Assembly (NCBI GenBank): GCA_963525915.1
Contig: CAURKX010000003.1
Coordinates: 29,427 to 93,426, forward strand
Length of the DNA: 64,000 bases
Source of the DNA: an uncultured Candidatus Saccharibacteria bacterium
Lineage (GTDB): Bacteria > Patescibacteriota > Saccharimonadia > Saccharimonadales > Saccharimonadaceae
Direction of reading: 5' to 3'
In this document: one piece after another, positions 38,748 through 47,395 of the stretch
How positions within the stretch are numbered: the stretch's first letter is position 1
Layout: every line of letters starts with the position of its first letter
Position numbers and translations under genes: made by a program
Notes under the pieces: model-generated
Seen by the model: only the letters and a program-made list of their open reading frames with translations
Databases searched by the model: none
What the model was told of the DNA's origin: nothing

Positions 38748-40316
38748 CTATTGTACCAGCAAGAAGTAATATGCGGCAGCTCCGCCACCAGCACCCAACA
38801 GTAGCAAAATCAAAATGATGATAAAGCTCATCACTCCAGATGGCTTCTTCTCTTCGACAGGTTGCGGTTGAGCTGCAGCCGCTTCAAACATCGGAGCAGG
38901 CTCTGGTGTCGATGTCTCTACTGGCTCGTTTGAACTCATCACTGAGGCTGCTGCTTGCTGCTTAAACGATGGCGCCGATTGAGGAGTATTCTCGCTTTCT
39001 ACCTCCGCCGCAGGCTGTTCATGTCCCACAGCACTCTCTTCAGGGGCGTCCGCCTGAGCAGCACTTAATTCATTAGTCAGTGAGTCTAGTTCAGCAACCG
39101 TAGCAGCCACTTCTGGCGTTTGCTCTTCTTCAGGAGCTTCACTGTTAGCATCAGCCAATTCACCCTTAATCCCCATTTCCAAAGCCATGAGCTCTCGGTC
39201 GAGGTCAGAATTCATGCCAACTGACTCTTCAGCTGCTACCTCTGAGCTTGGCTCAAGGCTCAGCCGTGGCTTACCGCCAAGGTCATTTTTCTCTGGCGCT
39301 GGACGCGCATCATCCGTCGCTTCAGTACCCATCAAGTCTGGGCTGACCATGGAGACTTCGCCATTCTCATCAGAAGTATTACCGGCGCCATATGAGCCCA
39401 ATGGACGCTTTTCTATGGTTGCGCTAGCATTGCTCAAAAACGGTGAAGCCAACGATGACGAGGTTGGCTGCCCTGCCGCTGTTTCGCCAAAGCTTGATGT
39501 ATCTGCCGACTGGTCGGTTGATGACAATGACTGAGAAATAGCATTTGCCAACTCTGTGGTATCTAAGGTCGGCGCTGCCGTCTCAGCTGGCGTGTTGCTT
39601 GACGCTGACTCGTGGCCGCCAGACGCATCCATGCGCGGTGCCCGTACTGGGTTGACCATTGGATCAGCCACCACTGTGTTGGTGCGAGCTGCTGCCGATG
39701 CTGGACGCGTGCTCATAGCAGCTGCACTCATTGACGATGGCGCTACCACGTCCATGACACGACCCGTGTGCCGTGGAGTGACTGGTGGAACAAACACTGG
39801 TTTCTCCGTCTTGTCTTCAGCTTCGGGCGCTGGGGTTTCATCAGTAGCCTGATCTGTCACAGCTGCCTCTGATGGCTCCGGCTGAGCTGGCTCTTCTACA
39901 ACAAACCCTGGCTGGGTGTTGGTAGCTTCAGGACTGTGAGTAGCTTCTGATTCAGGTGTGATCTCAGGCTTCACTTCAGGCACAACCTCGGGCTTTGCCT
40001 CAGGCGCAATGAAAACATGACCAGATGTTGACACTGGCGCCGTCGGTTCTTCAGCTGGCGCTGGCTCTTTAGGTTCATTACTCTCAGATATAGGTTTAAT
40101 CTCAGTTTTCTCAACCTCAGCCGTAGGAGCAGCATCAGCCGCCTGGCTGTCAGCTACCGAAGTTGTCTCAGGTTTTTTATCATCAGCCACGGAAGCTATT
40201 TCGGTCTTTTTGTCATCAGCCGCTGGACTATCTGAAGCACGGTCGCTGTCCTGCCGGCGCTGATTCATCAGTGAATTCACCGCCCTGTCCAGTTCCTCAA
40301 AGTCAATATCTGTCAT
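38748..40316 (-). CDS. Hypothetical acidic, Pro/Ala/Ser/Glu-rich disordered protein with C-terminal TM anchor
   Basis: 522-aa low-complexity ORF ending FIIILILLLLGAGGGAAAYYFLL; ATGA overlap with the tpiA stop. Confidence 0.75.
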   Translation of the reverse strand: MTDIDFEELDRAVNSLMNQRRQDSDRASDSPAADDKKTEIASVADDKKPETTSVADSQAADAAPTAEVEKTEIKPISESNEPKEPAPAEEPTAPVSTSGHVFIAPEAKPEVVPEVKPEITPESEATHSPEATNTQPGFVVEEPAQPEPSEAAVTDQATDETPAPEAEDKTEKPVFVPPVTPRHTGRVMDVVAPSSMSAAAMSTRPASAAARTNTVVADPMVNPVRAPRMDASGGHESASSNTPAETAAPTLDTTELANAISQSLSSTDQSADTSSFGETAAGQPTSSSLASPFLSNASATIEKRPLGSYGAGNTSDENGEVSMVSPDLMGTEATDDARPAPEKNDLGGKPRLSLEPSSEVAAEESVGMNSDLDRELMALEMGIKGELADANSEAPEEEQTPEVAATVAELDSLTNELSAAQADAPEESAVGHEQPAAEVESENTPQSAPSFKQQAAASVMSSNEPVETSTPEPAPMFEAAAAQPQPVEEKKPSGVMSFIIILILLLLGAGGGAAAYYFLLVQ

Positions 40317-43794: not shown

Positions 43795-43909
43795 TTTTTA
43801 AATTATATCACGAAATAACAGTGATGGAAAATGGTTGTACTATGCAAGAAAATTTCTCTCATATTCATGATAAGCAGTTCTACTGAGCCCACGCTGGGTA
43901 ACGGCATGC

Positions 43910-43993
43910 TTATAAATAACAGGCGGCGATCAGATTTTTTAAATCAACGTACGCCAAGGCTGATAAGCTTAAGTACTCAATGGTTTTTACCAC
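43910..43993 (-). pseudogene. 5' remnant of a lipase-like gene (MVKTIEYLSLSALAYVDL...)
   Basis: SD GAGGAGGG + GTG overlapping the end of the 274-aa gene; 27 codons then stop. Confidence 0.5.
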
Positions 43994-44811
43994 CTATCGC
44001 CCTCCTCTACTGGCATATTTTTTGACGTATCAATACAACCTTTTATCTCATTAATTGATAGCAGCTTATCGCTACTACAATATCCTTTTGAGATAAGCTT
44101 ACTTCCTTTTGATAGATACATATCCACAGATATATCTTTGGGGCTAACTCCCATGCTCTTCGTATACTCTATCATCTCATAAACACCGCTAGCAAAACGA
44201 TCCTCGTCTTTAATACTACCGTCATATTTAAAATCTAATCCATAAGCTAAATTGCCACGCTGCCCGACTTTATTTTCAGCCAAAAACACCTCCTCAAAAG
44301 TTGGTTTTTTCAGAGTGAAAGTACGCTCTACGTCTGGATCTATTACGCCTAGTCTAACTTTGACATCAACGGGCATGTCTTTAAATATTTCTCTGACTTT
44401 GGGCTGAATTTTGGCAGTTTGTTCTTTTTGCCAAGTTCTTACTACATAGTCGTCGCTGTACTTCGTCTGGTTATCCACCCGAGAAACATGTATCTTTATA
44501 CTTTTATCTGATTTAGGGTAGGCATCAGCAGACCATACGCAAGAGATACCAAAAGCACCGCCATCGCAACTAGGTTTTTCTACATCAAAATCTTGATTGT
44601 ATTTATTTTTTAGATAGCTAGTTATATTAGCCTGCTCGATCGTATCACTAACCGAACGTTTATTAATTTCTCTATCTACTATAATTCCACCTACGATATA
44701 CACTACCGTCATTATCACAACTATCGACGACAGGATAATTAAAATAACTTGCCAGGCCTTTTTATTATTTATGCGTGATTTGTTAGTCCTTTTGCTTTTA
44801 CCCTTCGCCAT
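43987..44811 (-). CDS. Island paralog A: membrane-anchored protein, YLKNKY-x-DF family
   Basis: Basic N-terminus, TM, YLKNKYNQDFDVEKP..GGAFG..WSADAYP, C-terminal Cys pair. Confidence 0.8.
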   Translation of the reverse strand: MAKGKSKRTNKSRINNKKAWQVILIILSSIVVIMTVVYIVGGIIVDREINKRSVSDTIEQANITSYLKNKYNQDFDVEKPSCDGGAFGISCVWSADAYPKSDKSIKIHVSRVDNQTKYSDDYVVRTWQKEQTAKIQPKVREIFKDMPVDVKVRLGVIDPDVERTFTLKKPTFEEVFLAENKVGQRGNLAYGLDFKYDGSIKDEDRFASGVYEMIEYTKSMGVSPKDISVDMYLSKGSKLISKGYCSSDKLLSINEIKGCIDTSKNMPVEEGDRW

Positions 44812-44861
44812 ACAATGCAGCCCCCTTATTGCCTAGTTATTTATGATTTTCTCTTAAGCAT
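44809..44861. repeat. Cassette-upstream repeat, copy 1
   Basis: catacaatgcagcccccttattgcctagttatttat (36 nt identical) plus near-identical tail ending ttaagcat; matches 46357-46409. Confidence 0.9.
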
Positions 44862-44895
44862 GAGCTAGTACAGCACTAGTGTATTTCATGACGTA

Positions 44896-45627
44896 TTATT
44901 CTCCCATCTTAACAATGCACGACTCTATATCGTCTTTACTGCCCAATTTATTTTTATTAAAAAATATTTCGCATCTTATTTTCGAGTTATTATTTCTATT
45001 TACATCTACATCTACACTATACACACCCTCTTCTCGCAGCTTCTCTACAATTTTAAATATATAAGAGGCCTTTTGGCTGTCATTCGGAGCGTCTATTATT
45101 AATCTATACAGGAAGCCTTTGTCCTTGGTTTTATTGTCTTCATATTTAGATTGTTTATTCACAGAATCTACCAAATCTTCAGATAAGACAATTTCTGCCC
45201 GTGCACTATCTGCTTTATAGCCATTGCTATTAGCGTTAACTTCTTTGACAATAGATTCTAACTCCCTGCTGGCTTGGACTGACCAGATGGCGGCGATGTA
45301 TTGGTCGCTACAGTCAGAGGGGTTCAAATAGCTGCAATCGATGTCAAATTTTAGTTTTGGGTTTGACACTAGGTATGCTTGCGACATCCATATACCGTTG
45401 ACCCCAAAACCTCCGTGTTTATACTCGGGTCTTTCGACCTTAAAGTCTTCTTTATATTTATTGTTCAGATACTCAGACATCCCATTCTGGGCATTAGATA
45501 TTTTATTTTCATTTTTGATATGTAAGACAATCGCTATGGCAACAATCAATATAACCAGGCTACAGAGGGCTATCAATAATTTGTATACTTTATGCTTCTT
45601 TGTCTTACTGACTTTCTTTGCCATCAC
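44896..45627 (-). CDS. Island paralog B: membrane-anchored protein, YLKNKY-x-DF family
   Basis: MSEYLNNKYKEDFKVERPEYKHGGFGV..W..AY..SNP.LKF; SD GGAGGGGG. Confidence 0.8.
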   Translation of the reverse strand: MMAKKVSKTKKHKVYKLLIALCSLVILIVAIAIVLHIKNENKISNAQNGMSEYLNNKYKEDFKVERPEYKHGGFGVNGIWMSQAYLVSNPKLKFDIDCSYLNPSDCSDQYIAAIWSVQASRELESIVKEVNANSNGYKADSARAEIVLSEDLVDSVNKQSKYEDNKTKDKGFLYRLIIDAPNDSQKASYIFKIVEKLREEGVYSVDVDVNRNNNSKIRCEIFFNKNKLGSKDDIESCIVKMGE

Positions 45628-45801
45628 CCCCTCCGGTTACTTTATAGATTATTTATTATTTTAGTTTAAGCACGACCCATACACAAGAGAGCGCTGCTAT
45701 ACAATCCTAGGTTATAGGCTGTGAAGTTTCACCTTCCAGGAGCAGATAGGGTTAGCCCCTTTCTTAAAGGCAGAGAGCTAAATATCTGATGAATCAAAAC
45801 C

Positions 45802-46236
45802 TCAGAGGCTATTCAGCTGATTAATAGATCCGACTACTGAGGCAATACCCCATACTGTCCCATTCATATAAATTATTTCTTGATACTCCTTAGGATCTCC
45901 TAGGTCATACCCACAATGCTGTAGTTCATATTTACCGTCGTATATCTTTCTGCCACATAAGTCTGGTTTACCGATAAGCTCCTCGACCGTATCCCTATCC
46001 ATGCCGATCTGGACGTCGCTCATCTTCTCATAGAACTCGTCCTTAGTTGACCAAGGCCTACTGTTAGTATCGGAGCTAGCATTAGTATCAGAGACAGTAT
46101 TAGGGCGAGGAGTGTGCTGCTGTAGATATAGGATTGTTACGATTCCAGCGGTAAAACATATAGCTACGTAAACTAGCACAATAGCCACGAGCTTAATTAA
46201 CTTTTTATCTTTATAAGGATGACCGTTGTTTACCAT
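45802..46236 (-). CDS. Membrane-anchored protein with BLIP/SmpA-OmlA-like domain
   Basis: TM, then VQIGMDRDTVEELIGKPD motif typical of that fold. Confidence 0.65.
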   Translation of the reverse strand: MVNNGHPYKDKKLIKLVAIVLVYVAICFTAGIVTILYLQQHTPRPNTVSDTNASSDTNSRPWSTKDEFYEKMSDVQIGMDRDTVEELIGKPDLCGRKIYDGKYELQHCGYDLGDPKEYQEIIYMNGTVWGIASVVGSINQLNSL

Positions 46237-46314
46237 AAGCTTATTCTATTACGTTATACTGGACAGTTCAATCTACTTGAATATCTAGAAATAGTTGGAA
46301 GCTCACCAGGTTTT

Positions 46315-46359
46315 TTATTTACGCGCGTTTTTCGTCCTTTTACTTTTACTCTTCGTCAT
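46315..46359 (-). pseudogene. 5' stub of a fourth island paralog (MTKSKSKRTKNARK*)
   Basis: Homologous to the start of paralog A (MAKGKSKRTNKSR) and preceded by the same upstream repeat. Confidence 0.7.
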
Positions 46360-46409
46360 ACAATGCAGCCCCCTTATTGCTTAGTTATTTATTATTTTAT
46401 CTTAAGCAT
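46357..46409. repeat. Cassette-upstream repeat, copy 2
   Basis: Matches 44809-44861 (offset 1548). Confidence 0.9.
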
Positions 46410-46512
46410 AGGCACGATACAGCATGCCAGTGGTCTTATTTGTAAAAGTAACTCTGAGGTCAGTAATTGCTTTGAAATTAGTGTCAGATGTTCTAGAGTA
46501 TCTAATACCACA

Positions 46513-47211
46513 CTAGCTCTCCTTTAAACACTGTTTTATAATTCCATAATTTAGTTGCGGAACTACATCATAGCCAGCCACACATGTATAGACTCTCCTA
46601 TCCCTGGTAACAAGAGTGTAATCTATGGTTATTTTAGATACTCCTTGGCTATATATCTCTTCAATTATAGATGCTACTTTATTTGTAATATCATCTCTAT
46701 TGTCTGCTTCGACTATCTTAATGCTCAACTTATATATAGGATCATATCTTCGTTTTATATCGCCTAAACTACTGCTTTTTGTGATTTCACTTAAAACTTC
46801 ATCCTTAATAATCAACCGTATTGAATAGTCTGTCACTCCTATGGCTTTCATAGACGATTGTAGTCGATCATATTCTTGTCTTGAAAAATACAAATCCAAA
46901 TATTCATCATTACATTCCTCTACACACCCTATATAAAATCTTAGTTGAGGGTTTGAAATAGGATAAGCATGAGATTTCCACGAGCCGCTAACCCCAAAAC
47001 CTCCATGTTTATATTCAGGCCTCTCTACCCTAAAATCTTCGTTATATTTATTTTTTAGATATTCAGACATCTTACCTTGAATACCGGCTAATCTATTTTC
47101 ATTTCGAATATATAAACCAGCCAAGACAACAATAAACAATACTGCCAAGCCACCTAGGAACAGTAATAATCTATATTGCTTGTTCTTTTTCCGGTTGCGC
47201 TTCTTGGACAT
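46513..47211 (-). CDS. Island paralog C: membrane-anchored protein, YLKNKY-x-DF family (start ATG 47211)
   Basis: MSEYLKNKYNEDFRVERPEYKHGGFGV..WKSHAYPISNPQLRF; SD GGAGG. Confidence 0.8.
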   Translation of the reverse strand: MSKKRNRKKNKQYRLLLFLGGLAVLFIVVLAGLYIRNENRLAGIQGKMSEYLKNKYNEDFRVERPEYKHGGFGVSGSWKSHAYPISNPQLRFYIGCVEECNDEYLDLYFSRQEYDRLQSSMKAIGVTDYSIRLIIKDEVLSEITKSSSLGDIKRRYDPIYKLSIKIVEADNRDDITNKVASIIEEIYSQGVSKITIDYTLVTRDRRVYTCVAGYDVVPQLNYGIIKQCLKES

Positions 47212-47275
47212 TAGATCCTCCAACAGTCTTATCTTTATGCTTTCATTGTAACCCAACCACAAGCAGTATACAACG

Positions 47276-47307
47276 AAAATATAGACAGCTAAAGCTGCCT
47301 ATATTTT
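47276..47307 (-). terminator. Intrinsic terminator after tRNA-Glu
   Basis: AAAATATAGACAGCT-aa-AGCTGCCTATATTTT inverted repeat. Confidence 0.75.
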
Positions 47308-47320
47308 GATAATTTCTCTG

Positions 47321-47395
47321 TGGTGACCTTACCGGGAATCGAACCCGGATTGCCAGGATGAAAACCTGGTGTCCTAACCGTTAGACGATAAGGCC
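47321..47395 (-). tRNA. tRNA-Glu (TTC)
   Basis: GGCCTTA...CCAGG-TT-TTC-AT-CCTGG...GGTTCGATTCC...TAAGGTC-A-CCA. Confidence 0.96.

Follow-up and report, generated by a model that had tools for sequence, protein, structure and literature searches.

What keeps three diverged, membrane-anchored paralogs intact beside a tRNA gene in an uncultured bacterium of the Candidatus Saccharibacteria, an epibiont of the candidate phyla radiation (CPR)? The stretch analysed here – the window, 64,000 nucleotides (nt) long, to which all coordinates refer – contains a 3.5-kb island between tRNA-Glu and pyk, with every gene on the minus strand: three intact paralogs (A, B and C), a fourth copy of 14 codons and one BLIP/BamE-like gene (gene D). 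A sequence-only reading had taken the island for a library of surface immunity proteins against lipase-type effectors, and our data support that view. We conclude that the island is probably an array of orphan immunity genes belonging to a polymorphic lipase system of reverse orientation and type I secretion; an immunity role is likely for the paralogs given their genomic context, the selection acting on them and a predicted complex.

The paralogs and the lipases of armed relatives

The paralogs and the fragments beside them are as follows (L-numbers are locus labels of relatives; family means the paralog A/B/C family; aa, amino acids).

43987-44811, minus strand: paralog A, 274 aa; likely immunity protein
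44896-45627, minus strand: paralog B, 243 aa; likely immunity protein
46513-47211, minus strand: paralog C, 232 aa, with membrane anchor, cystatin-like domain and alpha/beta domain; likely anti-lipase immunity protein
46315-46359, minus strand: A-type paralog stub, 14 codons plus leader (97 nt at 85% to the leader and 5' end of A)
43926-43993, minus strand: lipase-RTX 5' stub after A, about 17 codons in frame, then out of frame (95-nt alignment to L096)
44876-44894, minus strand: degenerate lipase-RTX start after B, about 7 codons (DNA match to the L018/L011 junctions, 91% over 35 nt)
46497-46511, minus strand: lipase-RTX start after C, about 5 codons (DNA match to the L023 junction, 91% over 34 nt)

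All three paralogs are basic at the N-terminus (net +5 to +7), contain a single hydrophobic segment and have two C-terminal Cys residues (245/259 in A, 219/237 in B, 210/228 in C); pairwise identity among them is 25-36% (expectation value, E, 1e-17 to 1e-41). The open reading frames (ORFs) and these features are those of the sequence-only reading; the motif it described as shared also stands, with the correction that the glycine motif is GGFG in B and C and GGAFG in A. The family is unnamed, with 138 representatives matched at 50% identity. A, B, C and D reach no Pfam or NCBIfam family cut-off, and no named family lies above cut-off; among 116 family members Pfam finds YfjL_N in two and DUF5037 in none. 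The model of C (predicted local distance difference test, pLDDT, 96) comprises an anchor helix, a cystatin-like domain and an alpha/beta domain. Its best fold match is 4GL6 (DUF5037; Foldseek E 6e-6; VIA Z 10.7, root-mean-square deviation 5.1, 193 aligned; profile match E 0.0025), the next row falling to Z 6.9, and there is a weak fold match to the DUF1672 protein 4QPV (E 0.04). Of the members of Atlas neighbours of the family at 0.91, 36-43% carry YfjL_N.

The stretch upstream of pyk, compared in 40 of 100 genomes and at 10 further loci, varies strongly between strains. We call a locus armed where family gene(s) share the site with an RTX gene and HlyD. Twenty loci, the window included, have a pyk at least 98% identical: ten are unarmed with two or three family genes alone, seven are armed (one or two family genes, RTX gene and HlyD) and three are cut or partial. 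The armed order is family gene, lipase-SPM-RTX (SPM, self-processing module), hlyB, hlyD, so that homologs of the paralogs stand directly before lipase genes; two of the seven, L011 and L016, have a split RTX gene. Each paralog has such a counterpart. Paralog C is 96% identical to the gene directly ahead of an intact 2056-aa lipase-RTX in L023; B-type genes (79-85%) stand immediately ahead of intact lipase-RTX genes in L018, L013 and L006; and in L096 an open lipase-SPM gene comes after an A-type gene whose C-terminus is that of A. L132 is 95% identical to the window over 2 kb (C, stub, D), with its A-type stub at the same position, and then runs on into B', lipase-RTX, hlyB and hlyD.

The intact partner (2056-2063 aa) consists of an N-terminal GHSLGG lipase domain, Asp457-Pro458, an FrpC-type SPM and RTX repeats. 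Lipase_3 matches it at E 2e-10 in L017 and E 0.004 in L012, the N-terminal domain adopts a class 3 lipase fold in the model, and across 24 lipase sequences the catalytic S162 is invariant, with D223 and H321 nearly so. The module matches the FrpC SPM 6SJW (E 3.8e-35, with D457-P458); the DP motif is present in 22 of 33 long partners and absent from L091 and from the 10 of a second lineage, described below. HlyB and HlyD of the relatives lie above NCBIfam cut-offs, and the locus gene maps of L012, L018 and L023 show neither TolC nor HlyC. The lipase part, which is presumed to be the toxic one, is N-terminal, not C-terminal as in the classical polymorphic toxin layout. The sequence-only reading had named lipase-type effectors; that the partner is an FrpC-like RTX protein, with its SPM and its own HlyB/HlyD, had been missed.

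Two side observations concern these proteins. Residues 84-227 of L023:5020-11187 show weak similarity to the SA1320 family of S. aureus (E 1e-4, falling far short of the cut-off); together with the DUF1672 match this could possibly reflect a distant staphylococcal counterpart. A 774-aa HlyB with an N-terminal extension lies with HlyD apart from the RTX gene in L024:2835-5159, L082:806-3130, L119 and L121.

The window retains only traces of the partner. The stub after A scores 21.9 bits against a protein profile (control maximum 5.8); those after B and C score 0 and are visible only as DNA matches to intact junctions, which put the stub after C at about 5-10 codons. The rest of the lipase-RTX gene, hlyB and hlyD are absent at the island, and no effector or HlyD match occurs in the window's genome. 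The collapsed partner genes proposed earlier exist only as 5' lipase stubs after A, B and C; the 14-codon fourth copy is real and A-type. The strain has lost the lipase and exporter genes and kept its likely immunity genes intact and, since it lacks the lipase and export genes of its relatives, the paralogs are likely kept as shields against the relatives' lipases.

Pairing, predicted contact and selection

The association between family and lipase recurs across loci. In a count that includes kin and some duplicate loci, a lipase start follows 136 of 187 Saccharibacteria family genes and none of 364 controls. When the family is clustered at 50% identity, a GxSxG lipase directly follows a member in 21 of 36 clusters (0/500 controls), and a lipase or stub does so in 27 of 36 (3/500 controls); gaps in 30 family-lipase pairs range from -58 to +26 nt. 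A GTDB genome scan yielded at least 67 loci (the locus scan used one peptide pattern, kept 80 of 83 hits and is a biased sample). A second Saccharibacteria lineage carries arrays of two to five family genes that end in a lipase-RTX of about 860 aa without the SPM, or in its fragment, and hlyB/hlyD are absent from the second-lineage loci examined (L053-L055, L088). The earlier reading had not anticipated the family's occurrence in type VII loci of Bacillota: in Neobacillus, Fredinandcohnia and Paenibacillus homologs with a lipobox-like Cys stand directly ahead of Mbeg1-like N-terminal lipases, with EssC above cut-off. A Clostridium locus (L094) has family, lipase, SPM and RTX pieces with hlyB.

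Some arrangements are recorded here for their own sake. At L053-L055 and L088 a gene cluster that includes a VirD4/TraG-like coupling protein stands upstream of the array and SPM-less lipase-RTX. Other members of the genus (L124:7028-15081, L125:6741-13484, L130:5199-12387, L122 and L129) carry the system a second time, 3' of tRNA-Pro and with no adjacent hlyB/hlyD; in L121, L126 and L127 hlyB/hlyD are found apart, at tRNA-Glu.

Within the genus the family occurs in 44 of 100 genomes and the HlyD query matched in 26: both in 22, family alone in 22, HlyD alone in four. The 22 family-positive genomes without an HlyD match include single-contig genomes; of the four with HlyD alone, examined as potential counter-examples, three have loci cut by contig ends (L118, L022, L134) and L119 has an RTX gene without lipase. 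A search across the order found matches in 8 of 401 genomes, every one of them from the taxonomic family of the window; with at most six candidates scored per genome, it does not show absence.

These figures bear on a different ecology for the same inhibitor biochemistry. The lipase might be a feeding tool against the host membrane, the anchored protein protecting or regulating it on the producer, and orphans guarding only against collateral damage from epibionts nearby. Saccharibacteria are not known to synthesise lipids, a point in favour. They are also obligate epibionts that take host resources (PMC13622651), and an SPM can cross-link the N-terminal part to surface proteins (PMC5233953). 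We nonetheless consider a feeding role improbable: HlyD in just 26 genomes argues against a core feeding route, and strain antagonism is the better fit for lipase N-termini that differ by type and for arrays with as many as five diverged partners.

The predicted complex of paralog C with the lipase part from L023 reached a median of 0.80 (runs 0.59, 0.83 and 0.80), the best of three controls 0.00; at least 75% of contacts recur between runs, and the partner has a pLDDT of 85 or more. Of 157 solved pairs 116 pass the mark we applied, as do 2 of 215 mismatched ones, a calibration only roughly valid for the alignments used. On the lipase side the predicted interface comprises a variable segment (13-46), an RGT loop (90-94) and catalytic stretches (161-163 and 318-324); on that of paralog C, the GGFG loop (residues 68-79) and residues 93-106. 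In this way the model arrives independently at the lipase segment that accompanies the family gene; it also appears to cover the active-site Ser and His.

Predicted binding would suit any binder, and membrane-anchored lipase foldases exist. The family could serve to anchor the lipase-RTX at the surface or to help it fold – the function initially suggested for FrpD, or that of a Lif-type chaperone – with orphans as spare parts or recent relics. Gene order and SPM match frpDC, and FrpD binds the FrpC N-terminal domain tightly (PMC5233953). Several points nevertheless make this unlikely: the predicted interface covers the catalytic Ser and His; orphans are intact under purifying selection where lipase stubs are down to a few codons; the family serves lipases of two unrelated export routes; and FrpD itself has been proposed as an immunity protein (PMC6759196).

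Purifying selection on the orphans is evident from ratios of nonsynonymous to synonymous change (dN/dS; pairwise Nei-Gojobori, among copies that are kin and not independent): 0.18 for A (nine copies) and 0.16 for B (six copies), with pyk at 0.02, and 0.13-0.28 in five family types of the second lineage. Family domain matches fall inside intact ORFs 201 times and outside four times; lipase stubs erode in many ways. It is very improbable that the array amounts to silent cassettes for variation, or to decaying leftovers that at present do nothing for the strain. Such a view could draw on the AT-rich hotspot, filled with other cargo or nearly empty in relatives, on the one decayed copy and on the lack of expression evidence: runs with island sequence had a word share of at most 0.15, the four examined were all contigs, and the sole recorded RNA run is a single 211-nt contig. 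Against it stand dN/dS values of 0.05-0.27 in each of the three regions of A and of B, the shortness of the stubs after B and C, which could not hold the variable segment, and the absence of an exporter. The orphan immunity array is our preferred reading.

The unit of exchange and the variable tRNA-Glu site

Partner identity averages 0.54-0.65 over the first 500 alignment columns and 0.80-0.99 beyond, and each family type comes with its own lipase N-terminus of about 40 residues. When 12 second-lineage pairs are compared, the stretch of lipase that comes after its first helix (residues ~16-55) shows 97% identity within types and 36% between them, the lipase body being 97-98% identical within and between family types alike. 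In the window's genus the N-terminal segment tracks the family gene at r 0.85, the body at r 0.39. It follows that the swapped unit is the family gene plus the lipase 5' end. Recombination also takes place inside family genes, as indicated by mosaic paralogs (L005:6715-7488, L018:11259-12065, L015:2609-3382, L017:2873-3646) that share one B-type C-terminal half and have at least four different N-terminal parts. One 145-aa protein (P0158), with a family-like start and an end like the lipase N-terminus, is probably a deletion product.

A number of observations weigh against the account given so far. Concerning the enzyme, the lipases of L018 and L023 have no Lipase_3 match at E 0.01, and the lipase model has a pLDDT of only 71. 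The complex was folded for a single near-cognate pair (96%), with no non-cognate paralog as control, and close cousins also pass. The dN/dS of orphans may partly record time spent beside an intact lipase, and the fourth family copy has decayed in the window. Linkage of adjacent DNA alone predicts the tracking of segment and family gene, which thus identifies a unit of exchange and not co-evolution; the genomes compared are, moreover, kin. With the lipase body 98% identical between types, one broad inhibitor might suffice, and specificity is assumed. Protection seems dispensable for many strains, since 56 of 100 genus genomes have no family match, and among the loci examined no member stands directly before a whole lipase in 4 of 8 Bacillota and 11 of 28 Saccharibacteria clusters.

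The island's borders and its remaining features are these.

47321-47395, minus strand: tRNA-Glu(TTC), its 3' end abutting the island at the edge of a variable hotspot
43795-43838, minus strand: right junction, 38-44 nt before pyk (95-100% identity in L011-L013, L016-L018 and L022-L024)
45802-46236, minus strand: gene D, 144 aa, single membrane segment; BLIP/BamE-like lead
45730-45777, minus strand: probable remnant of lipase residues ~48-63, behind D (tblastn E 0.004 to the L017 lipase, island alone searched; DNA alignment weak)

The island has a guanine-plus-cytosine content of 0.370 (0.494 and 0.486 in the 10-kb flanks), which together with the abutting tRNA bears out the earlier description of an AT-rich region at a tRNA 3' end. 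The tRNA-Glu 3' site is a general variable hotspot: the interval to pyk ranges from 220 nt to 10.7 kb in relatives. The right junction is common to armed strains, where it lies just downstream of hlyD, and Nanosynbacter records (L090, L098) keep the order tRNA-Glu, family gene, pyk. A duplicated tRNA 3' end of at least 9 nt was searched for across the island and none was found, leaving an integrase-type element unsupported. Promoter-like sites are at chance level (18, against 15 +/- 5), with one 11/12 site upstream of the tRNA, and the spacer of 100 nt ahead of A-type genes (46396-46500) matched only equivalent spacers in relatives.

Other AT-rich cargo occupies the site in L046:15287-17376, L049:2350-5806, L010:7339-10070, L017:164-1254 and L008:1646-5548 – DNA methylase/restriction-like or other defence-like genes, as judged by eye – and it is nearly empty (220-480 nt) in L038, L039 and L050. 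Between the tRNA 3' end and paralog C lies a 15-bp near-perfect inverted repeat (47276-47307), kept in armed relatives and possibly a terminator or processing hairpin. Outside the island, downstream of a triosephosphate isomerase-like gene, an ORF at 38748-40316 encodes a 522-aa acidic Pro/Ala/Ser-rich protein with a C-terminal hydrophobic tail.

Gene D travels with the system: it adjoins family genes in L082, L085, L086, L121, L126 and L132. That a BLIP/SmpA-like membrane gene is interleaved had been noticed before; the gene is there, its label a lead only (Pfam BamE E 0.017, below cut-off; Atlas BLIP/BamE cluster 0.88). Its dN/dS is 0.37. With a leader of about 76 nt (45802-46312) it lies behind differing family genes across strains and in another lineage (L082, L085, L086), and the two may form a second protective cassette.

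Proposed mechanism and known systems

How might such a system work? HlyB/HlyD would export the RTX protein, which calcium would fold, triggering Asp-Pro self-cleavage as in FrpC (PMC5233953) and freeing a lipase part of about 457 aa. By analogy with Tsl/Til (PMC10730906, PMC13560087), from which toxicity, inhibition and protection in trans are carried over, the freed part would attack nearby membranes. In the predicted complex the anchored partner would hold on to the variable N-terminal segment, with its conserved GG(F/L)G loop pressed onto the catalytic Ser/His. Immunity gene and lipase 5' end are likely moved by recombination, as one unit, onto a shared lipase body, which would make new specificities and leave orphan immunity arrays with stubs. 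Attackers and targets are most likely other Saccharibacteria on the same host cells; they are the likeliest source of attack because near-identical relatives encode the variants that would match A, B and C, the target being the least certain step. The full proposal – strain-specific warfare among Saccharibacteria by a reverse-oriented, type I-secreted, self-cleaving RTX lipase whose N-terminal tag of about 40 residues, swapped with a new immunity family, sets specificity, unarmed strains stockpiling immunity genes – we regard as evenly poised between right and wrong.

If true, toxins and matching immunity would be at work between bacteria among CPR epibionts, and the view of FrpC-like RTX proteins as antibacterial effectors whose immunity genes lie upstream would gain support. 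The array points to competition between ultra-small epibionts, whereas earlier studies have concentrated on relations between epibiont and host. The variation would be unusual for a toxin, a short segment beside the active site changing and the enzyme body staying constant. An unnamed family gains a testable role, and DUF5037/YfjL-like proteins a lead: records seen for the fold relatives RUMGNA_01148 (4GL6, DUF5037), YfjL_N (PF25425) and DUF1672 (4QPV) give no function.

Literature searches, with supplements and most subscription papers outside their reach, found no description of the locus or family in Saccharibacteria. An Rhs-type toxin with an immunity neighbour has been noted there (PMC6031116), and a preprint on host type VII defence makes no mention of lipase or RTX in the part available (PMC13622651). 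The 2012 survey of polymorphic toxins touches on RTX only in passing in its available text (PMC3482391). Several features of polymorphic toxin systems are present: a secreted multidomain protein with a conserved trafficking part and a variable, presumably toxic part (in the relatives, not in the window), a small variable partner gene beside the putative toxin gene, and strain-variable, likely orphan immunity genes with toxin fragments.

The system resembles TslA/Til1 (DUF576) and TslM/Til2 (DUF1433) of S. aureus in its N-terminal lipase domain, the putative toxin, with GxSxG and Ser-Asp-His, in its membrane-anchored extracellular proteins, likely for immunity, in variable tandem arrays, in the retention of these as orphans after toxin loss, and in shuffling by recombination (PMC10730906, PMC13560087). 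It differs in host, a CPR epibiont, and in the immunity family: DUF576 or DUF1433 is found in 0 of 116 members at E 0.01. It also differs in export, the Saccharibacteria partner ending in SPM and RTX with HlyB/HlyD where Tsl has an LXG-like domain for type VII; the Bacillota homologs, in contrast to the Saccharibacteria ones, adjoin EssC (type VII).

In architecture the system parallels N. meningitidis FrpD/FrpC, where a membrane-anchored partner gene lies directly upstream of an RTX protein with an Asp-Pro SPM and FrpD binds the N-terminal part (PMC5233953), as is predicted here. Unlike in FrpC, that part is a recognisable class 3 lipase; unlike in frpDC, the locus holds exporter genes, without TolC or HlyC. 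The partner here has a transmembrane anchor and a DUF5037-like fold; FrpD is not among the fold matches listed, which does not by itself exclude a link. FrpC/FrpD have been proposed, without demonstration, as an antibacterial effector-immunity pair (PMC6759196), and our system offers a case with a recognisable enzyme for that proposal.

FtxA of Filifactor alocis (ftxABD), an oral monoderm, is likewise an RTX protein of about 2,000 aa with an FrpC-like module, followed by HlyB and HlyD only, without HlyC or TolC, and an unexplained hypothetical gene lies upstream of ftxA (PMC7692872). FtxA has been studied as a host-directed toxin, and its GxSxxG (412-417) falls inside the SPM-like region, whereas here the lipase is separate and N-terminal (PMC7692872); no named FtxA is among the best 120 of 342 matches listed. 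The system would work like the staphylococcal reverse lipase systems, from which it differs in immunity family and export route, and is built like frpDC and ftxABD.

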